A program made the position numbers and the translations under genes. The notes beneath the pieces are model-generated. The model was not told the origin of the DNA. It worked only from the letters and a program-made list of their open reading frames with translations, and searched no databases. A DNA stretch of 64,000 bases from an uncultured Bacteroidales bacterium (GTDB taxonomy: Bacteria > Bacteroidota > Bacteroidia > Bacteroidales > VadinHA17), in contig CAWKJD010000003.1 in the NCBI GenBank assembly GCA_963849945.1, positions 162,811 to 226,810 of the forward strand, given 5' to 3'. Below, piece by piece: positions 3,006 through 43,536 of the stretch (within the stretch, counting starts at the first letter, position 1; each line of letters opens with the position of its first letter).

Positions 3006-5959
3006 TACCTCGGGTCGGGGAGGACTGGCAGCCTGGCCATCTTTTCCACTTCAATACTTGTCGCGCCAAACTCATCAACCACTTTTCCCTGAATGAGATA
3101 AGTTCCGCTTCCGCGGAACGGCCAGCTTACCAGCGACTGAGGGAAGTGGGTTGTGTCGAAGAACTCGCCGCGGTTATCAATGAAGCACCCGAAGTTCATC
3201 CACTCCCTCTTAACGGTCTTAATATATTTCACTGTCACCAGGTGTCCTGCCATTTTTACCCTGCGGCCCACCATTTCCTTCATTTCCGATGCCATAACCT
3301 CGCCCCTGAACTTTGTCTGCAGCATGTCAAACCATGAGAGGGTCACGGGGAAGCCAAGCAGTTCAATTTCGTCATAGGCATCCTCGAGCTTCGTCTGCTC
3401 AAAGGGAGGCATCACATACTTTTTAGGTTCAGGGTTGAACAGTGTACGTGCCGTCTCGCTCTTCCCTTTGTTAATAAGCATGTGTGCATCCCAGAGCAAC
3501 AGCGCCTTGCTTTTTCCGGTGAACCTGAAAGCCCCGGTACGTATCAGGATAATGGTCTGTTCTATACCTGGACCGATGCGTGAGATAAAGTCACTAATAT
3601 CTTGATAGTCACCATTGTTATTGCGTTCAGTTATGATTTCATGCGCCAGGCTGTTTTCAAGTCCCGTGATATGTATCAGTCCCAGAAAAATACTCTTTCC
3701 GTATATAGTGGTTTTGTAGGTGCTCCGGTTGATGCATGGTGCTTCAATGACGGCGCCCTCACGTTTTGCCTCATGCACATAGACCCATGTCCGGTAAAAG
3801 CCTCCGAAATTATTGATGACGGCGACCATGAACTCGAGGGGGTAGTGGGCCTTCAGCCACAGGCTCTGGAAGCTCTCAACAGCGTAAGAGGCCGAGTGCG
3901 CCTTGGAGAATGAATAACCGGCGAACAATTCAATCTGGCGCCACACCTCCTTTGTTGTCTCTTCGGGGTAGCCCTTCTCGCGGCAGTTGGCGAAGAACCG
4001 GTCTGTGATCTTCATCATCTCCTGCCGCGAGCGGTGCTTGCCGCTCATGGCGCGGCGCAGTGTGTCGGCATCGGAGAGGTCGAGGCCCGCGAAGTGATGA
4101 CACACCTTCAGTACATCCTCCTGGTAGACCATCACCCCGAAGGTCTCACTGAGGAGATCCTTCATCAGGGGGTGGATATACTCAAATTTGCCGGGATTAT
4201 GGAAGCGGTAAATGAACTGGCGCATCATACCCGAGCGGGCCACGCCGGGCCTGATGACCGAGCTGGCAGCCACAAGTGTCAGGTAATCATCGCATCTGAG
4301 CTTCTGCAGCAGTCCGCGCATGGAAGGGCTCTCAATATAAAAGCATCCTTTTGCATCACCGCTTCGCAGATGCTCTTTCACCAGCGGGTCGTTCTTGAAC
4401 TGCTGTATGGCATGCACGTCGACGTCGACGCCGCGGTTGGCGCGTATGATCTCCGCGCTCTCCTTTATGTGGCCTATGCCTCTCTGGCTCAGTATGTCAA
4501 GCTTCTCGTAGCCCAGCTCCTCGGCGGTGTACATGTCCCACTGCGTGGTAGGGAACCCCTTGGGAGGCATGTCGAGAGCCGTGTAGCAGCAGACGGGGTC
4601 TTCGGATATAAGCACGCCGCCGGCATGTATGCTGCGCAGGTTGGGGAAGTCAGCAATTTTATTCCCCGTTTCAAATATGAGGTCAGGGATCTCTCCGCGG
4701 TTGCTCGCGGCAGAGGGATTGTCAATAAGGGCATCAATCTCATCAACCGGCAGTCCGTGCACCTTGCCCAGTTCTCTTACGATAGACTTGCCCCTGAAGG
4801 TGTTGATGGTGCCCAGCAGGGCGGTATGACGATGGCCATAACGCCTGAAGATATACTCGGTGACGGTGTCGCGTTCCTTCCATGAATAGTCTATGTCGAA
4901 GTCGGGCGGGGAGGTGCGTTTGGGGTTTATGAAGCGCTCAAAGTAAAGGTTTAGATCAATGGGGTCAACATTGGTGATTTTCAGGCAGTAAGCAACAACG
5001 GAATTGGCTCCGCTGCCGCGACCGACATGATAGAATCCGCAGGCCATGGAGTAGCGTATTATGTCCCATGTTATGAGGAAGTATGCAGAGAAGCCGAGGC
5101 GGTCGATGATCTCCAGTTCATGTCTCACCCGTTCTTCAGCGACCTTGTTGTTTGTGCCGTAGCGGTATTTCATCCCGTCCCATGCCAGCTTCTCGAGCAG
5201 CAGCTTGTCATCGTACCTGCTTGCCGAGTAGATCTTTTTGTTTTTGTGTGTGGTGAAGTCGATGCTCAGTGAGCAGTCGTTGAGCAGCCTGCGCGTGTTG
5301 TCGGTCACCCGGGGCCACATCTCAAAGGGACGGACAAGCTCATTCTCAGGGATGATCATCTCGTCGGGCGAGGCTGTCATGTGAGGCTCGAGGCGGCTGA
5401 GAAGGATGTTGTTATCGACGGCGCGCAGGCTGCGGTGCACAGGGTAGTCAGCCGGTGACTCTATCGTAACTGGCTGAAGGATAACACATTTAGATATTTG
5501 TTTCTTTGCCATGGAAACCAGCCTGCCGGCAGCAGAGGGGCGTATGCCGATGTACTCATTATCGTGCAGGACTGATGGGACGTCGCTGCCGGAATCGCCT
5601 GCGCTGCCGGAGGGGTAGATGACATAGGCGTTCGGGAAGGAGGGAGGGCGCAGGGGGAGAGGCTCGCCTTCGAAGTTATGTTGAGTGAGGAACTCGTTGA
5701 GTTCCCTGAAGCCGTCGTTGTTACGTGCAATTCCGATATATAGCAGTTTATTGTCACTGCGGAATTCTATTCCCGCTGCCGGGGTGATGTCGCGGCTGCC
5801 GCATTCGCGCACGAAGTCGGGCACGCCGGTGGTGTTGTTGATGTCGGTCAGCACCAGGCGCTGCGCGCCGGCAGCCGCGGCGAGCTCAGAAAGACGCTCG
5901 ACGGTTATGGTGCCGTAACGAAGGCTGTAATATGAGTGGCAATTAATGTACATTTCCAA
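3002..5959 (-). CDS. dnaE2: error-prone DNA polymerase III alpha-like subunit (DnaE2/ImuC type)
   Basis: 985-aa ORF; N-terminal PHP domain and pol III alpha core; shorter than replicative DnaE; start overlaps the stop of the upstream Y-family polymerase by 17 nt. Confidence 0.85.
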   Translation of the reverse strand: MEMYINCHSYYSLRYGTITVERLSELAAAAGAQRLVLTDINNTTGVPDFVRECGSRDITPAAGIEFRSDNKLLYIGIARNNDGFRELNEFLTQHNFEGEPLPLRPPSFPNAYVIYPSGSAGDSGSDVPSVLHDNEYIGIRPSAAGRLVSMAKKQISKCVILQPVTIESPADYPVHRSLRAVDNNILLSRLEPHMTASPDEMIIPENELVRPFEMWPRVTDNTRRLLNDCSLSIDFTTHKNKKIYSASRYDDKLLLEKLAWDGMKYRYGTNNKVAEERVRHELEIIDRLGFSAYFLITWDIIRYSMACGFYHVGRGSGANSVVAYCLKITNVDPIDLNLYFERFINPKRTSPPDFDIDYSWKERDTVTEYIFRRYGHRHTALLGTINTFRGKSIVRELGKVHGLPVDEIDALIDNPSAASNRGEIPDLIFETGNKIADFPNLRSIHAGGVLISEDPVCCYTALDMPPKGFPTTQWDMYTAEELGYEKLDILSQRGIGHIKESAEIIRANRGVDVDVHAIQQFKNDPLVKEHLRSGDAKGCFYIESPSMRGLLQKLRCDDYLTLVAASSVIRPGVARSGMMRQFIYRFHNPGKFEYIHPLMKDLLSETFGVMVYQEDVLKVCHHFAGLDLSDADTLRRAMSGKHRSRQEMMKITDRFFANCREKGYPEETTKEVWRQIELFAGYSFSKAHSASYAVESFQSLWLKAHYPLEFMVAVINNFGGFYRTWVYVHEAKREGAVIEAPCINRSTYKTTIYGKSIFLGLIHITGLENSLAHEIITERNNNGDYQDISDFISRIGPGIEQTIILIRTGAFRFTGKSKALLLWDAHMLINKGKSETARTLFNPEPKKYVMPPFEQTKLEDAYDEIELLGFPVTLSWFDMLQTKFRGEVMASEMKEMVGRRVKMAGHLVTVKYIKTVKREWMNFGCFIDNRGEFFDTTHFPQSLVSWPFRGSGTYLIQGKVVDEFGATSIEVEKMARLPVLPDPRY

Positions 5960-28452: not shown

Positions 28453-28527
28453 AGCGGGAAACGAGAACTTCGAACTCGCGACCCTCAGCTTGGGAAGCTG
28501 ATGCTCTACCAACTGAGCTATTCCCGC
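28453..28527 (-). tRNA. tRNA-Gly (anticodon CCC), with an atypical 9-nt T-loop
   Basis: Manual cloverleaf: acceptor GCGGGAA/TTCCCGC, D arm GCTC-AGTTGGTA-GAGC, anticodon arm TCAGC-TTCCCAA-GCTGA, T stem GCGAG/CTCGT with loop TTCGAAGTT (9 nt rather than 7). Confidence 0.8.
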
Positions 28528-28684: not shown

Positions 28685-28756
28685 AGCCTCCCATGGGAGT
28701 TGGACCCACGACCTGCTCATTACGAGTGAGCTGCTCTACCACTGAGCTAAGGAGGC
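28685..28756 (-). tRNA. tRNA-Thr (anticodon CGT)
   Basis: Manual cloverleaf: acceptor GCCTCCT/GGGAGGC (one G-U), D arm GCTC-AGTGGTA-GAGC, anticodon arm GCTCA-CTCGTAA-TGAGC, T arm GTGGG-TCCAACT-CCCAT (C where U55 is expected). Confidence 0.8.
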
Positions 28757-37772: not shown

Positions 37773-39023
37773 TCAGGTTATGTCTGCGCCTAGACCTTTC
37801 AATGCCTCAAAAAAATCCGGAAATGATTTGCTGACTGCTTCCGCACCGGTGATGCCCACCTCTCCCCTGCTGCCGAGAGCCATCACTGCCTCCATCATTA
37901 CTATCCGGTGATCATTGTGTGATGAGACACCGGTGCCTCTGACCTCACCACCCTCAATGAACATGCTGTCTCCCTCAACATACGCATTGATATGCAGCTC
38001 ATTGAGAACCTGAATGATAGCCTTCGCACGATCGCTCTCCTTATGCTCCAGCCTGCCTGCTCCTTTTATCCTGCTTATTCCGCGACAGTAAGCTGACAGG
38101 GCAGCCAGCGGTGGGAACAGATCCGGAGAATCAGTTGCATCAAAGGTGAATGCTTTCAGATCAGACCTCGCTGCCTTAACCTGATCGTCCTGTTTTGTTA
38201 CCCTCACTCCTGCCCTGAAGAAAGCATCAAGAACCATCCTGTCAGCCTGTGCACTGTCACATTTCAGGTTGCTGACCGTAACCTCACCTGCAATAGCCCC
38301 GGCGACGAGCAGAAAAGCTGCAGCGCTCCAATCCCCTTCCACCGTATATTCATGAGCTCTGTAATGCTGATTTCCCGGGATGTTAAAGCGCTTGAATTCA
38401 AGATTTTCTACTTTAATCCCGAAATCGGACAGAAGCTGTTGAGTGAGACTGATATAGGGTTTGCTCATAAGGTGATGAACTGTTATCGCGCTGTCAGATT
38501 TCAGCAAAGGAAGAGCCATTAACAGGCCTGTCAGAAGCTGCGATCCTGTCGAACCATCAATGGTTGCATTTCCTCCGCTGATCTTTCCATTTATTGTCAG
38601 CGGAAGAAAACCATTGTCAGTCGTGACCGTAACCCCAAGCTGTGAGAGAGCCTCGCCGATCATACCCACCGGCCGACGAGTAAGAGAACCTTCCCCGGTG
38701 ATGGTAGTCTGGGATCCAAGAGCTGCTGCAATCGGTGCAAACATACGCAAGGCCAGTCCCGACTCCCCGCAGTGAAGGGTAACGGGGGAGGCAGGTCTCA
38801 TCCCTGACTGTACAGTGACTAAATCATTGTCTGAAGTCACATGAGCACCCAACTTTTCTACCATCTTCATGACAGCCAGTGAGTCATTACAGAACGAAGG
38901 GTTCCTTATCACTGTAGTGCCGGATGCAAGCAGCCCTGCAGCTATAGCCCTTTGCGTAAGGCTTTTACTTGGCGGAGCAATGACTTTGCCACTAATTGAG
39001 GCCGGTCGGACAGTGATTTTCAT
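37773..39023 (-). CDS. aroA: 3-phosphoshikimate 1-carboxyvinyltransferase (EPSP synthase)
   Basis: 416-aa ORF; PPSKSLTQRA, LxxxGCxxxT-like N-domain, HNDHRIVMM near C-terminus. Confidence 0.92.
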   Translation of the reverse strand: MKITVRPASISGKVIAPPSKSLTQRAIAAGLLASGTTVIRNPSFCNDSLAVMKMVEKLGAHVTSDNDLVTVQSGMRPASPVTLHCGESGLALRMFAPIAAALGSQTTITGEGSLTRRPVGMIGEALSQLGVTVTTDNGFLPLTINGKISGGNATIDGSTGSQLLTGLLMALPLLKSDSAITVHHLMSKPYISLTQQLLSDFGIKVENLEFKRFNIPGNQHYRAHEYTVEGDWSAAAFLLVAGAIAGEVTVSNLKCDSAQADRMVLDAFFRAGVRVTKQDDQVKAARSDLKAFTFDATDSPDLFPPLAALSAYCRGISRIKGAGRLEHKESDRAKAIIQVLNELHINAYVEGDSMFIEGGEVRGTGVSSHNDHRIVMMEAVMALGSRGEVGITGAEAVSKSFPDFFEALKGLGADIT

Positions 39024-39070: not shown

Positions 39071-40186
39071 TTATTCATCTTTCATCACTTTCATCTGTCT
39101 GATTATCGATTCCTGGTGGATGGCCTCAAGGATCGTATGAATGAACTCCGGAGTAAGGCCTCTCTTCGTTCCTCTTGTAACTGCGTTATTTACAACTTCT
39201 TTCCACCTCTCGCTCTGCAGAATAGTGATATTATGTTCTTTCTTGTACTTACCAATAGTTTCAGAGACAGCCATTCGGTTTTCCAGTATATCAAGCAGCA
39301 GTTCGTCGTAAATATCTATCTGCCTTCGGAGATCACCCATGGTGTCGAGAAATTCCCTGTCGCTGGAGGTCGATGCTCTCAGTACCAGCCTGCTCAGTAT
39401 TCCCACAAGATCAGCAGGCCTGAGTTGCTGTTGTTTGTCGCTGAGGGCATTGTCAGGATTGATGTGAGATTCGATCATAAGACCATCGTAATTCAGATCC
39501 ATCGCCTTTTGTGACAGGTCTTCGATATAGATTCTGTCGCCACCCATATGGCTCGGGTCACATATGAGAGGCAGGTCAGGTATGCGCTGGCGGAGCTCCA
39601 CGGGTATCTGCCATCTGGGATGATTGCGGAATGCACTCTTCTCCCATGAGGAGAATCCGCGGTGAATGGCTGCGATGCGTCCTATGCCTGCTTTGCTTAT
39701 CCGTTCTATGGCTCCGATCCACAGCTCCAGGTCAGGGTTAACAGGGTTCTTGACGAAGACCATCACATCGGCGCCCCTGAGCGCTGCTGCTATTTCCTGT
39801 ACAGCAAAAGGATTGACGGTAGTCCTGGCGCCGATCCAGACGGCGTCAATCCCATGCTTCAGGGCCTCATAGACATGTTTTTCAGTGGCAACCTCAACAG
39901 CCACGGGAAGACCATACTGTTCTCTGACCTGCCTGAGCCACCTCAGACCGATGGTTCCAATCCCCTCAAAAGTATCAGGTCGCGAGCGCGGTTTCCAAAT
40001 GCCTGCACGGAACAGATCCACCTTGCCTGAGGCAGCAAGCTCAGCAGCAGTGCCGAATACTTGCTCCTCACTCTCCGCACTGCAGGGGCCGGCAATCACA
40101 AGCGGCCTCTGCTTATATATCTTCCATTCCCTGATAGGTGATATTGCCATTCCGGGCTCTTTCGTCACGATATTTTCCGTCTTCAT
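39071..40186 (-). CDS. bifunctional 3-deoxy-7-phosphoheptulonate (DAHP) synthase / chorismate mutase
   Basis: 371-aa ORF; class I-beta DAHP synthase core (LVIAGPCSAESEEQ, ICDPSH) followed by a C-terminal type II chorismate mutase helix bundle (LLDILENRMAVSETIGKYK). Confidence 0.88.
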   Translation of the reverse strand: MKTENIVTKEPGMAISPIREWKIYKQRPLVIAGPCSAESEEQVFGTAAELAASGKVDLFRAGIWKPRSRPDTFEGIGTIGLRWLRQVREQYGLPVAVEVATEKHVYEALKHGIDAVWIGARTTVNPFAVQEIAAALRGADVMVFVKNPVNPDLELWIGAIERISKAGIGRIAAIHRGFSSWEKSAFRNHPRWQIPVELRQRIPDLPLICDPSHMGGDRIYIEDLSQKAMDLNYDGLMIESHINPDNALSDKQQQLRPADLVGILSRLVLRASTSSDREFLDTMGDLRRQIDIYDELLLDILENRMAVSETIGKYKKEHNITILQSERWKEVVNNAVTRGTKRGLTPEFIHTILEAIHQESIIRQMKVMKDE

Positions 40187-40202: not shown

Positions 40203-41054
40203 TTATTTCAGGATCGCTCCTATCTCGTTTGCTGATCTCATAAGCGCCCTCAATGCCGCACTGTCACCGTCTTTTATGTAGCTCTTAAAGAGGTTCATCT
40301 TTTCAATATAGGTATCGATGACCTCCAGTATCGGGCCTGAGTTGCCGATGAAAATCGGAGCCCATGTCTCGCCGTTGCTCTTTGACAGACGCACCGTGCT
40401 TTCAAATCCGCCGGCGGCAAGGGACATGATATTTTTTGCGTCCTTTTCCTTGTCAAGCACGCACAGGGCAAGAGCGAATGACGTAATGTGGGATATATGA
40501 GATACGTATGCCACGTGTACGTCATGTTCCGTTGAGTTCATATACTGGATCCGCATATTCAGCGACTGCAGCAGGGCAATAAAAAGCTCCAGCGCATCTT
40601 CATCGCTGCGTTCCGGATCACATATAATTGCTAATTTATCATAGTAGAGCCTGTCAATGGCGGCTGCCGGTCCGGAGTGCTCCGTCCCGGCCATCGGATG
40701 GGCAGACACGTACCTTCCGCGGGCGGGGTGGACAGCAGAAACGGCAGCAATGTCGGCTTTGGTTGATCCCATGTCCGCGACAACCTTTCCTGTACCGCTG
40801 ATCTTATCAAGTATACCAGGGAGCAGCTGGCAGTTGGCATCAACCGGTGCACAAAGAATTATGATTTCAGATCTCTCAACAGCCTCATCAAGGGAAAGGA
40901 ATTCGTCTGCCAGACCGCGATACATTGCTATAGTACGGTGATGAGGATTGTTATCCACACCATATATTTTACCGCCGAAGCCGTTCGTCTTTAGTCCGCG
41001 TGCCAGGGATCCGCCGATCAGACCTAAACCTACAATACAGATATTCAAAGCCAT
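40203..41054 (-). CDS. tyrA: prephenate dehydrogenase
   Basis: 283-aa ORF; ICIVGLGLIGGSLARGL Rossmann motif, SAHPMAG catalytic region. Confidence 0.88.
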   Translation of the reverse strand: MALNICIVGLGLIGGSLARGLKTNGFGGKIYGVDNNPHHRTIAMYRGLADEFLSLDEAVERSEIIILCAPVDANCQLLPGILDKISGTGKVVADMGSTKADIAAVSAVHPARGRYVSAHPMAGTEHSGPAAAIDRLYYDKLAIICDPERSDEDALELFIALLQSLNMRIQYMNSTEHDVHVAYVSHISHITSFALALCVLDKEKDAKNIMSLAAGGFESTVRLSKSNGETWAPIFIGNSGPILEVIDTYIEKMNLFKSYIKDGDSAALRALMRSANEIGAILK

Positions 41055-41069
41055 ATGTTAGTAAATAAG

Positions 41070-42254
41070 TTAGATATTAATTGTCTTAAGTGGAATTTTC
41101 ACCCGGTCGAGCGCTGCTTTCAGAACATCTTCGGGTGCACAAAGGGATATCCTGATGTATCTGTTTCCGTTGCTTCCGAAAATGAGACCGGGTGTAATAA
41201 AAACGTGCCTGTCATACAGCAATGCATCTGTCATTTCTGCCGCGTCAGTGTAATATTCAGGTATCCTGCCCCAGAGAAAAAGGCCAGCCTGATCCCTTGC
41301 AAAAGTACAGGAAAGGGCATCCATGATCTCTCCTGCAATAACACGCCGTCTGAGATATACTTCATTAAGCTGCCGGTACCATTCCGGGGGCGCCTCAAGA
41401 GCCGCTGCCGCTGCCGCCTGCAATGGCTGAAACATGCCTGAGTCCATATTACTCTTAACCTTCATGATGGCGCTTATATAGGCGGCATCACCGCCAACCA
41501 TTCCAATCCTCCACCCTGCCATGTTATGAGATTTGCTCAGGGAATTAAGCTCGAGAGCGACATCTTTAGAGTCATCAACAGAGAGAATGCTCAATGGATT
41601 GTCATTAAGGATAAAGCTGTAAGGGTTGTCATTGATCAGCAGAAAGCTGTGCCGGCGCACAAAAGCGATAAGGTTCCTGAAGATTTCCACTGACGCTTTG
41701 CGACCGGTGGGCATATTAGGATAATTGATCCACATAATCTTCACATGGCTGAGGTCTTCAGTATCCAGGATACCCGTATCAGGTAACCAGCCGTTCTCTT
41801 CAGTCAGGTCATAGTACCTTACCTTGCCTCCTGCAAGTTTTGTTGCTGCTTCGTATGCCGGGTATCCGGGATTGGGGATTAGTACCTCATCACCCGGATC
41901 AAGGAAAGCCATACTTATATGCATGATGCCTTCCTTTGACCCTATCAGGGGAAGAATTTCAGAAGCGGGGTCGAGATCAGCATGAAAGTAAGTCTTATAC
42001 CATCCGGCCAGTGCGTTGCGCAGGGCTGGTATGCCATTATAACTCTGGTAACCGTGATTGGAAGGGTTGGATGCATTTCTGTACAAAGTATCAATAACTG
42101 CAGCTGACGGAGGAAGGTCAGGACTACCTATGCCGAGGTTGATGACATCAAGTCCTTTCCGCCTCATGTCAGCTATCTCTTTCAGTTTCCCTGAGAAGTA
42201 GTACTCCTGCACGAGGCTTAAACGGGATGCGGGATTTATTTTTGAGCTGCTCAT
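41070..42254 (-). CDS. class I/II PLP-dependent aminotransferase (first gene of the aromatic amino-acid operon)
   Basis: 394-aa ORF; SLSKSHNMAGWRIG pyridoxal-Lys motif; operon context with tyrA, DAHPS/CM and aroA. Confidence 0.85.
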   Translation of the reverse strand: MSSSKINPASRLSLVQEYYFSGKLKEIADMRRKGLDVINLGIGSPDLPPSAAVIDTLYRNASNPSNHGYQSYNGIPALRNALAGWYKTYFHADLDPASEILPLIGSKEGIMHISMAFLDPGDEVLIPNPGYPAYEAATKLAGGKVRYYDLTEENGWLPDTGILDTEDLSHVKIMWINYPNMPTGRKASVEIFRNLIAFVRRHSFLLINDNPYSFILNDNPLSILSVDDSKDVALELNSLSKSHNMAGWRIGMVGGDAAYISAIMKVKSNMDSGMFQPLQAAAAAALEAPPEWYRQLNEVYLRRRVIAGEIMDALSCTFARDQAGLFLWGRIPEYYTDAAEMTDALLYDRHVFITPGLIFGSNGNRYIRISLCAPEDVLKAALDRVKIPLKTINI

Positions 42255-42286: not shown

Positions 42287-42318
42287 AAAAAAAAGTCCCG
42301 TTCTCGCGGGACTTCTTA
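42287..42318 (-). terminator. intrinsic terminator inside the 5' leader of the aromatic operon (attenuator terminator)
   Basis: Minus strand AAGTCCCG-CGAGAA-CGGGACTT followed by T8; located 33 nt upstream of the aminotransferase ATG. Confidence 0.75.
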
Positions 42319-42354
42319 AATTATATTTCTCTTTACCTTTATGATGACATATAA

Positions 42355-42426
42355 CTAATCCATCCCATTTCTTACCTGGTAATAGAAATAGTAATAATAA
42401 AAGTCATATGGTGCAGATGTTCTCAT
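42355..42426 (-). CDS. Tyr/Phe-rich leader peptide (23 aa) of a candidate attenuator
   Basis: Minus-strand ORF ATG..TAG: MRTSAPYDFYYYYFYYQVRNGMD (7 Tyr plus 2 Phe within 10 consecutive codons); below the ORF-track cutoff. Confidence 0.7.
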   Translation of the reverse strand: MRTSAPYDFYYYYFYYQVRNGMD

Positions 42427-42535
42427 GATAACGGTGGTAAAAGTATTAAAAAAACAATCAGAATCGCATTTTACTGTTAAAAATTCTTCTAGATCTTTGT
42501 AATATGCTGATATTTATAAATTAAAGTATTGGAAA

Positions 42536-43009
42536 ATGGCACAGGAGATTGAAAGGAAGTTTCTGATCGCCGGTGATTTCAGGGGTGAGGCGAGTGAAGA
42601 AACGCAAGTTGTTCAGGGTTACCTTTCTTCAGCTGCGGAACACACTGTGAGGGTAAGGATCAGCGGTAGACGCGGATATATAACTGTCAAAGGGGCATCA
42701 GACCCGGCAGGGATTGAAAGGTTTGAATGGGAAAAGGAAATACCTGTTACAGAAGCGCGCGATCTGCTTAAACTATGTTACCCCGGCATCATTGAAAAGA
42801 CGCGATACAAAATAAAATGCGGAAGTCACTTCTTTGAGGTTGATGAATTTCACGGTGAAAATGAAGGGCTGATAATTGCGGAGGTTGAGCTTTCATCACC
42901 TGATGAGTTTTTTGAGAGACCGTCATGGCTTGGTAAGGAAGTGACAGGCGATCAGCGTTATTATAATTCCTATCTTTCCAGAAATCCATACTCCGGCTGG
43001 AGATGCTAA
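42536..43009 (+). CDS. CYTH-domain protein (triphosphate tunnel metalloenzyme)
   Basis: 157-aa ORF beginning MAQEIERKFLI (ExExK signature), typical CYTH length. Confidence 0.85.
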   Translation: MAQEIERKFLIAGDFRGEASEETQVVQGYLSSAAEHTVRVRISGRRGYITVKGASDPAGIERFEWEKEIPVTEARDLLKLCYPGIIEKTRYKIKCGSHFFEVDEFHGENEGLIIAEVELSSPDEFFERPSWLGKEVTGDQRYYNSYLSRNPYSGWRC

Positions 43010-43536
43010 AAAGTAAACGTATTGTAATATTTCGCTATGCCATAGCCTTCCTTTTGGCGGTCGCTGCCATTGCCATAGCATCGCTGACCGTCGGGCGTGA
43101 CATATATTACGGATCGCGTGATCAGGGACTATTGTCTTTTGCCATCGTCAATGCCGCCGGGTACCTTTTCTTTCTTTTCATGCCTGTAGAGATCGCTTTT
43201 GTCTATTACCTGCAGGGAGATATTAATATCATAGCATTGAATGCCGTAGCACTGGGGACAGCGCTTTTCTCCCAGACAATTGATTATGCTATTGGAGTGA
43301 TGCTGAGTGACAGGATTATTGATTCTCTGATCGGCCGGCACCGCTATGAGAAGGCAGAGGATGAGATAAGGAAGTATGGCAATATCGCCATTTTCGTGTT
43401 CAATGCATTACCTCTGTCCTCTCCTGTTATCTCGCTGGCAGCAGGAATGCTCCGTCACCGCAAGAGGGATGCAGTCATCTTTACAGTTTCAGGACTGGTC
43501 ATCAAGTACCTGCTGATAAGTGTCATTTTCGGCTGA
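43003..43536 (+). CDS. small integral membrane protein (DedA/YqaA-like, tentative)
   Basis: 177-aa ORF with 4-5 TM segments; 7-nt overlap with the CYTH gene. Confidence 0.45.
   Translation: MLKSKRIVIFRYAIAFLLAVAAIAIASLTVGRDIYYGSRDQGLLSFAIVNAAGYLFFLFMPVEIAFVYYLQGDINIIALNAVALGTALFSQTIDYAIGVMLSDRIIDSLIGRHRYEKAEDEIRKYGNIAIFVFNALPLSSPVISLAAGMLRHRKRDAVIFTVSGLVIKYLLISVIFG

Follow-up and report, generated by a model that had tools for sequence, protein, structure and literature searches.

The window considered here, the whole 64-kb stretch of DNA that was analysed, contains on its minus strand an operon for aromatic amino acid biosynthesis, preceded by a candidate leader-peptide attenuator. To go by how its closest protein matches are named, the DNA comes from an uncultured Bacteroidales bacterium. 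The original prediction had described the operon as aminotransferase, tyrA, DAHP synthase/chorismate mutase and aroA, lacking prephenate dehydratase. Pfam domain matches bear out this gene order, and a tblastn search of the 64-kb window found no gene for prephenate dehydratase (PDT). Adjacent genes are 15-47 nt apart, and the convergent mnmE gene is next after aroA. The ATG codon of the aminotransferase gene, at 42254, lies directly downstream of the leader with no pheA between; the same is observed in eight close relatives. At its other end the leader region borders on a divergent gene encoding a CYTH-domain protein (42536-43009, plus strand). The features, in the direction of transcription, are as follows.

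42438..42445, minus strand: putative Bacteroidota -7 box TACTTTTA (TAnnTTT[G/A]), proposed from motif enrichment and from relatives.
42355..42426, minus strand: leader ORF with ATG at 42426, 23 codons and the stop codon TAG (UAG) at 42357-42355, product MRTSAPYDFYYYYFYYQVRNGMD; from the sequence and the ORF list.
42379..42408, minus strand: candidate regulatory run comprising codons 7-16, which read Y D F Y Y Y Y F Y Y, inside segment 1 (42410-42381).
42343..42376, minus strand: segment 2; 42376-42348 closes the 1:2 hairpin as its 3' half, 42366-42343 provides the antiterminator with its 5' strand, and the UAG codon 42357-42355 falls inside.
42308..42331, minus strand: segment 3, which supplies the antiterminator with its 3' strand and overlaps the 5' arm of the terminator; from folding.
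42287..42317, minus strand: predicted intrinsic terminator with stem AAGAAGUCCCG 42317-42307, loop CGAGAA 42306-42301, stem CGGGACUUUUU 42300-42290 and U8 42294-42287.
41070..42254, minus strand: class I/II aminotransferase (aromatic/aspartate type), the first structural gene; Pfam PF00155 Aminotran_1_2, with orthologues across Bacteroidota.
40203..41054, minus strand: prephenate dehydrogenase, tyrA; Pfam PDH_N and PDH_C.
39071..40186, minus strand: bifunctional DAHP synthase/chorismate mutase; Pfam DAHP_synth_1 and CM_2.
37773..39023, minus strand: EPSP synthase, aroA, with which the operon ends; Pfam EPSP_synthase.

The 23-codon ORF reported on the minus strand at 42426..42355 is present in both the sequence and the ORF list. 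The claimed cluster of seven Tyr and two Phe codons within ten consecutive codons is also found, at codons 7-16, the remaining codon of the run encoding Asp. No other ATG ORF of 6-45 codons on either strand of the 64-kb window reaches seven aromatic residues in ten codons. The leader region has a GC content of about 30%, a composition at which TTT and TAT codons are frequent.

Downstream of the ORF, a GC-rich hairpin followed by eight T residues had been described as AAGTCCCG-CGAGAA-CGGGACTT. This hairpin exists, and its stem can be extended to 11 bp (AAGAAGTCCCG / CGGGACTTTTT, 42317-42307 and 42300-42290), with the T8 tract at 42294-42287. The extended stem begins 38 nt past the leader stop codon; the GC-rich stem-loop has a folding energy of -14.6 kcal/mol. 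The hairpin was not listed by a consensus terminator scan of the window, likely because the stem can run into the T-run, leaving too few T residues for the rule of the tool. Since the flanking genes are divergent, it cannot serve as the terminator of an upstream gene.

Alternative pairings in the leader RNA

The 226-nt leader has a folding z-score of -2.57. Its full-length fold consists of a long 1:2 hairpin, in which 42410-42381 pairs with 42376-42348 (-16.3 kcal/mol), and the terminator. The antiterminator, which had not been spotted by eye in the original prediction, is now located: folding of the nascent transcript pairs 42366-42343 with 42331-42308 (2:3, -12.7 kcal/mol). In this helix GGGAU (42366-42362) pairs with GUCCC (42312-42308), UUAG (42358-42355) with UUAA (42319-42316), and UUAUAU (42354-42349) with AUAUAA (42326-42321), and there are four further inner pairs. 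The helix ties up 7 of the terminator arm's 11 bases.

The leader can therefore adopt the mutually exclusive structures 1:2, 2:3 and 3:4 that had been proposed as a check by folding, and the placement of the ribosome decides which of them forms. In the nascent-transcript folding the RNA ends just before the 3' arm of the terminator, and the ribosome footprint is modelled as -15/+14 nt, which is a simplification. With the modelled A-site on any of codons 7-16, segment 2 is free and 2:3 is the best structure. A modelled ribosome on the stop codon covers segment 2, so that 2:3 cannot form. Without a ribosome the nascent fold is 1:2, and the 5' arm of the terminator is free.

Full-length minimum-energy folding with a masked ribosome was also tried as a test of the switch and was replaced by nascent-transcript folding, as it kept the terminator at every ribosome position. 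Since the full-length minimum-energy fold always retains the terminator, antitermination must be kinetic. The situation is the same in the trp attenuator of E. coli, where the terminator is too stable in the full-length fold and the competition is kinetic. In the window, the stabilisation due to pairing of the terminator arm is -8.9 kcal/mol; 20 of 1000 dinucleotide-shuffled spacers do as well (p about 0.02), so that its significance is modest. The window antiterminator is AU-rich.

Conservation of the leader in Bacteroidota

Eight metagenomic relatives, with aminotransferases 84-90% identical to that of the window, have the same synteny of CYTH gene, divergent intergenic region and aminotransferase operon. 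The mean identity of their intergenic regions is 94%. The leaders are 90-94% identical to that of the window, versus 83-88% for the aminotransferase gene and 65-74% for third codon positions; the 30-nt spacer 3' of the terminator is 70-75% identical. As the leader is more conserved than the adjoining gene, the leader RNA is under stronger constraint than the neighbouring coding sequence.

The leader ORF and its reading frame are kept in all eight relatives. Changes in the aromatic run are either exchanges between Phe and Tyr or synonymous (TAT/TAC, TTT/TTC), and none of them creates a stop or a non-aromatic codon. The terminator stem is invariant and its loop is variable. The 2:3 helix is paired in 88.8% of cells, versus 36-56% in slid controls, and a change in segment 2 from GGGAU to GGGAC turns a U-G pair into a C-G pair opposite GUCCC. 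A synonymous TAT to TAC change in segment 1 is compensated by an A to G change in segment 2: in 1:2 a T-A pair becomes C-G, and in 2:3 the resulting G-U still pairs.

The comparison was then extended over the phylum. Loci with orthologous aminotransferases were taken from Bacteroidota species representatives (80) and from metagenomes (80), and the analysed set contains 168 sequences (167 fetched loci and the window). In 131 of the 168, a PDT gene directly precedes the aminotransferase gene (the PDT query protein was verified as Pfam PF00800). Leaders were defined as ATG ORFs of 6-45 codons with at least five aromatic residues per ten codons, situated at most 500 nt upstream of the first gene, and an operon was counted if 260 nt or more of sequence upstream of it was available. 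Such ORFs precede 134 of 143 orthologous operons: 111 of 114 with PDT first, 3 of 3 with PDT and a gap, and 20 of 26 with the aminotransferase first. Among the first 80 loci, 70 have a leader-type ORF on the operon strand; the opposite strand yields 22 ORF hits in total. A hairpin with a T-run, by strict rules, follows 121 of the 134 leaders, and most of the others visibly have imperfect stems. The aromatic run and the hairpin, whose conservation in orthologues had been suggested as a check, are therefore both widespread. The leader peptides are 16-41 aa long, and outside the aromatic run their sequence is not conserved. The phylum-wide leader family also includes candidate tandem double attenuators, and it occurs in cultivable genera such as Chitinophaga, Paludibacter, Flavobacterium and Saccharicrinis.

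The motif TAnnTTT[G/A] occurs at most 80 nt upstream of the leader ORF in 120 of the 134 cases, versus 20 of 134 in the reverse-complement control, and its position peaks sharply about 30 nt before the ATG codon. The candidate -7 box of the window is kept as TAC(T/A)TTTA in the close relatives. On sequence grounds, transcription probably starts a few nucleotides 5' of the leader ATG.

The dependence on ribosome position was analysed in an alignment-free manner in the 121 leaders with strict terminators, the nascent RNA being masked through 14 nt past the A-site. A ribosome on the last aromatic codon gives a mean stabilisation by arm pairing of -11.5 kcal/mol, with 119 of 121 leaders at -3 kcal/mol or lower. 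With the ribosome at the stop codon the mean is -0.55 kcal/mol, with 4 of 121 leaders at -3 or lower, but the larger mask in this position trivially cuts pairing, and thus shuffling is the fair comparison. Shuffled spacers have a mean of -3.8 kcal/mol (Wilcoxon p about 2e-21), and in 99 of the 121 leaders at most one of 30 shuffles is as good. The upstream partner of the terminator arm lies at a median of +2 to +8 nt from the first base of the stop codon, where a terminating ribosome would cover it. Independent lineages have arrived at this design with other sequences; in the leaders L054, L061 and L062, for instance, AGUCGGGUGUGU spans the stop codon and pairs with ACACAAGCCGACU of the terminator arm.

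A covariance model, R1, was built on eight sequences using only the 1:2 and 3:4 helices. A search of 880 kb with it identifies 43 leaders (E <= 0.01), all on the operon strand, with one hit in the window. The 1:2 and 3:4 helices are paired in 86.5% of cells versus 50-57% in slid controls, a comparison that leans their way, as the R1 alignment was fitted to these helices; cells with double changes number 293, versus 39-99 in slid controls. In the homologous terminator helix of the 43 leaders 99.7% of cells are paired, and all eight of eight pairs covary. The 2:3 helix, which is not enforced by R1, is paired in 61.4% of cells versus 35-48% in slid controls, with 1 of 500 shuffles as good (43 leaders). 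Its covariation in a fixed register is modest because the pairing register varies between subfamilies, and the alignment-free analysis is the better evidence for 2:3.

Regulatory codons and operon content

A profile of the window-type leader matched 44 leaders, including the PDT-first leaders L005, L004 and L093 at E-values of 1e-35 to 1e-37. The L005 leader is MRTFATYSYSFYYFFYPLVEGTE, and the N-terminus MRT.ATY is common to it and the window. The window leader thus shares its ancestry with the PDT-first leaders found in its nearest species-level relatives.

The codon content of the leaders correlates with the operon content. PDT-first leaders have on average 5.6 Phe and 4.2 Tyr codons, with Y/(F+Y) of 0.43, whereas aminotransferase-first leaders have 2.05 Phe and 5.95 Tyr, with Y/(F+Y) of 0.78, or 0.81 on unique peptides. 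The difference in Y/(F+Y) is significant on unique peptides (Mann-Whitney p = 2e-7) and also when the aminotransferase-first leaders are collapsed into eight peptide groups, set by eye (p = 0.0012). Runs of Tyr only are found in Lentimicrobium (MYYYAYYY...), in Arcicella and Cytophagales (..YYYYYG), in Spirosomataceae (..YYATYYYAGYY) and in L123 (..YRAYYYY). The exceptions are two aminotransferase-first lineages, L006 and L100, that are Phe-rich, and six aminotransferase-first operons have no leader. The match between Tyr dominance and the missing prephenate dehydratase, noted originally for the window, thus holds across lineages, except in L006 and L100.

PDT-first operons generally encode a prephenate dehydrogenase (PDH) as well, sometimes a divergent one. 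A three-way comparison of operons with PDT only, PDT and PDH, and PDH only was attempted and abandoned: of eight operons checked among those apparently lacking PDH by tblastn, seven carry a divergent PDH_N protein, and hence the sample contains no PDT-only class.

In the simplest history, pheA would have been lost or moved elsewhere, after which the codons shifted towards Tyr. We tentatively suggest, at close to but short of even odds, that the window element is a tyrosine-specialised attenuator that came about once pheA no longer headed the operon, the leader drifting from a balanced Phe/Tyr content (4 Phe and 5 Tyr in L005, 4 and 4 in L004) to a Tyr-dominated one (2-3 Phe, 6-7 Tyr), while other lineages independently came to runs of Tyr only (YYYYY, YYYAYYY, YYYAGYY). 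If this is true, the codon composition of the leader is an evolvable readout of the branch enzymes encoded by an operon. The ratio of Phe to Tyr codons, following the presence or absence of pheA, provides a natural experiment on the evolution of attenuator specificity.

Proposed mode of regulation and known systems

The leader of the window combines a cognate-codon ORF, an intrinsic terminator before the first gene and an antiterminator exclusive with it; the regulatory codons are situated in segment 1 and the UAG codon inside segment 2. The original reading of this region as an attenuator gains support in silico from the alternative structures, from conservation in orthologues and from the link between codons and operon content. 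We consider it probable (roughly 0.85) that the aminotransferase-tyrA-DAHPS/CM-aroA operon is controlled by this element as a ribosome-mediated leader-peptide transcription attenuator. Actual termination, the response to stalling and the dominant amino acid, Tyr versus Phe, are what we infer from this architecture.

The proposed mode of regulation is as follows. Transcription would begin a few nucleotides before the leader ATG, and a ribosome would translate the 23-codon leader while RNA polymerase advances. When Tyr-tRNA (and Phe-tRNA) is abundant, the ribosome would reach the UAG codon at 42357-42355 and cover segment 2; segment 3 would then pair with segment 4, forming the terminator, and transcription would stop at the U8 tract 42294-42287. 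When charged Tyr-tRNA is scarce, the ribosome would stall at the seven Tyr and two Phe codons in segment 1. Segment 2 (GGGAU...UUAGUUAUAU), left free by the stalled ribosome, could pair with segment 3 (AUAUAAUUUAA...GUCCC) before the 3' arm of the terminator exists; with 2:3 formed the terminator would be blocked and the operon transcribed. In the absence of translation, 1:2 and the terminator would form (superattenuation).

A second possibility is that the attenuator is set by binding of a protein, tRNA or metabolite, in the manner of TRAP, PyrR, T-boxes or riboswitches, the ORF being incidental. The terminator and the alternative pairings, taken alone, are equally compatible with a ligand-controlled switch, and in Bacteroidota, which have no Shine-Dalgarno signals, there is no ribosome-binding site to support translation of the ORF. 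However, what is conserved in the 134 leaders is an in-frame ATG, the aromatic run and a stop codon beside segment 2, with no aptamer-like sequence, and everything outside the aromatic run diverges freely. Changes in the run never give stop codons, although a single substitution would turn TAT or TAC into TAA or TAG. Neither the window nor related loci gave a match to a riboswitch or T-box in Rfam, and an RNA-binding factor would not account for a codon composition that tracks the encoded enzymes. We therefore regard a ligand-controlled switch as very unlikely.

Equally improbable, in our judgement, is that the terminated transcript of about 140 nt is a stand-alone small RNA, or that the ORF encodes a functional aromatic micropeptide, the position before the operon being secondary. 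The transcript would have its own putative promoter and terminator, like validated intergenic sRNAs of B. thetaiotaomicron (PMC7366714), and it shows a faint sub-threshold likeness to the Rfam family BTnc231. However, this likeness amounts to 15 bits against a family threshold of 80.4 bits, the element is always on the operon strand directly upstream of the first aromatic biosynthesis gene, and the peptide, varying from 16 to 41 aa, is unconserved beyond the aromatic run. A trans-acting role may be added to attenuation. The last possibility, a chance ORF beside an ordinary hairpin with no regulatory role, would be in keeping with the AT-rich intergenic DNA (about 30% GC, with frequent TTT and TAT codons) and with the generic terminator scan that lacks this hairpin, but it is effectively refuted by the comparative sequence data: such an ORF is unique in 64 kb, it recurs in 134 of 143 orthologous operons with few opposite-strand hits, the leader is more conserved than the neighbouring coding gene, the helices covary, and the hairpin is not the terminator of an upstream gene.

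Bacteroidota have no Shine-Dalgarno-led initiation, their promoters are unusual, few of their cis-regulatory RNAs have been catalogued, and their regulation is poorly charted. If the attenuator reading is correct, textbook ribosome-coupled attenuation would control aromatic amino acid synthesis across this phylum, and more than 130 examples are ready for an Rfam-style model and for genome annotation. Neither the window nor 12 related loci gave an Rfam hit at the gathering threshold. RF01859 (Phe_leader) came closest, aligning end to end with 26.4 bits and E = 0.059, well below its gathering threshold of 55; sub-threshold matches to BTnc231, MicC and a snoRNA were judged to be terminator or AT-rich noise. 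In the literature searched, older comparative papers excepted, no description of a Tyr-dominated leader was found, and we know of no characterised tyrosine-specialised leader-peptide attenuator. Bacteroidetes attenuators may already have been predicted in Vitreschak et al. 2004 and Lopatovskaya et al. 2010. The leader family is large in Bacteroidota, marginally documented and absent from Rfam, while the mechanism itself is a textbook one and unsurprising.

Among the closest documented systems is the 5' element of the pheA-aspC3 operon of F. psychrophilum, annotated in a transcriptome study as a 'leader peptide attenuation element' encoding the 27-aa peptide MNTNNTFYSNNSFYFYWNIGRDCYMVI (PMC9723704, SI D9, Table S7). 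In that species conserved structured 5' elements without Rfam hits were reported upstream of pheA; the pheA leader has a mapped transcription start site and read-through under specific conditions, and certain samples combine high values for the 5' segment (11.5-12.4) with low ones for pheA (5.9-7.9) (PMC9723704). Like the window, it belongs to the same phylum and operon family and has a terminator behind an aromatic F/Y(/W) ORF. Its pairing follows the window design too, GGGAU..UUAUAU near the end of the ORF pairing with AUAUAA..AUCCC, which extends into the terminator arm. When folded here, this element gave -11.0 kcal/mol for a ribosome on Phe13 and 0 for one on the stop codon; in the shuffle test, performed with the ribosome at Trp17, the mask extends into segment 2. 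On the other hand, the F. psychrophilum operon is pheA-first and its leader mixes Phe, Tyr and Trp, whereas the window has no pheA and seven Tyr codons to two Phe. Its segment 2 sits deeper inside the ORF than that of the window, and its sequence was not detected by the profile HMM of window-type leaders (nhmmer, no hit at E <= 10).

Two other candidate leader-peptide attenuators known from comparative genomics, Bacteroid-trp (RF01692) and uORFC-13-1 upstream of aroF in Acholeplasma (PMC8632094), are likewise associated with aromatic amino acid genes, the former in the same phylum as the window. However, their regulatory codons (Trp and Phe, respectively) and operons are different, and neither had an Rfam match in the window or related leaders.

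In C. glutamicum, the aroR leader (Phe-Tyr-Phe) upstream of aroF responds to limitation of Phe and not of Tyr (Neshat et al. 2014, as summarised in PMC11802643). As described there, it resembles the window in being a leader-peptide attenuator with mixed Phe and Tyr codons before an aromatic operon with DAHP synthase; it differs in that it is actinobacterial and has only the Phe-Tyr-Phe triplet, whereas the window leader has seven Tyr codons and would control tyrA. Going by that summary, Tyr codons are no guarantee of a response to Tyr, since aroR is unresponsive to it. The natural experiment offered by the Bacteroidota leaders thus also bears on whether Tyr codons can drive attenuation, aroR being the only mixed leader known to us to have been tested.

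The classical attenuators of E. coli, pheL-pheA (RF01859) and the trp, his, thr and leu leaders, share with the window a cognate-codon ORF in segment 1, the logic of 1:2, 2:3 and 3:4 pairing, a stop codon beside segment 2 and an intrinsic terminator before the first biosynthetic gene. Unlike them, the window element belongs to a host from Bacteroidota, with no Shine-Dalgarno signal and a promoter of the TAnnTTTG type. Unlike pheL, its run is dominated by Tyr and not composed of Phe only, and its operon consists of tyrA, aminotransferase, DAHPS-CM and aroA genes without pheA. The distinguishing trait of the window element is this Tyr-biased run, matching an operon that contains tyrA and lacks pheA.

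Terminator and surroundings of the Tyr-rich leader

The clear hairpin followed by U8 at 42287-42317, downstream of the Tyr-rich leader ORF, was not reported by the consensus terminator scan of the window. This is likely because stem pairing can continue into the T-run, leaving too few T residues beyond the stem for the rule of the tool; thus negatives of the consensus scan are unreliable for terminators with A-rich 5' shoulders. The only Rfam matches at gathering level across the whole 64 kb window were two tRNA genes:

28453-28527, minus strand, tRNA gene
28685-28756, minus strand, tRNA gene

In Lentimicrobium, a SAM riboswitch (RF00162, 72.8 bits; minus strand, 3720-3819 of locus L002) precedes the aromatic operon by approximately 1.2 kb, and has no relation to the Tyr-rich leader. 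The leader operon has divergent neighbours:

42536-43536, plus strand, genes of a CYTH-domain protein and a VTT/DedA-like membrane protein

Their synteny is unchanged in all close relatives (named loci L081, L083, L085-L087). The 281-bp intergenic region is common to the leader and the promoter of these neighbours.

Operon content and leader type

As a rule, operons lacking the prephenate dehydratase gene pheA have Tyr-rich leaders. Two of the Bacteroidota loci with orthologous operons (L numbers; coordinates are locus-internal) are exceptions. The aminotransferase-first operons of L006 and L100 have Phe-rich leaders, MKNFSAFGFWYYFFYSKRGGSVIV (~4807-4937) and MQNFNSYFFFFYYYFFYRERGVCVIVV (~1077-1218) respectively, and no prephenate dehydratase was found within their reach. 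No aromatic leader ORF was observed upstream of the aminotransferase in six further operons, and therefore they must be under some other regulation:

L016, L039, L060, L079, L106, L126: some Saprospiraceae and Sphingobacteriales (Pedobacter, Pseudosphingobacterium)

Bacteroides-type operons encode, 3' of the DAHPS/CM gene, a divergent protein of 257-271 aa whose sole Pfam match is PDH_N (34-41 bits). These proteins were not detected by tblastn with the window tyrA as the query.

Divergent PDH_N proteins (Pfam)
L008 7343-8119
L025 7448-8221
L038 7247-8020
L044 7246-8019
L070 7287-8060
L011 7296-8099
L056 7263-8078

Tandem leaders upstream of pheA

Twelve loci contain a tandem pair of aromatic leader ORFs, spaced by approximately 150 nt, within ~470 nt upstream of pheA:

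L052, L063, L068, L078: Chitinophaga
L017, L026, L036, L051, L058: Saprospiraceae/Lewinella
L132, L157, L064: further loci

The first leader of the Chitinophaga pair also has a Trp codon (..FGFFGFYYFWYQE). In most of the twelve loci both ORFs have a separate GC-rich hairpin with a T-run downstream, so these arrangements look like tandem double attenuators.
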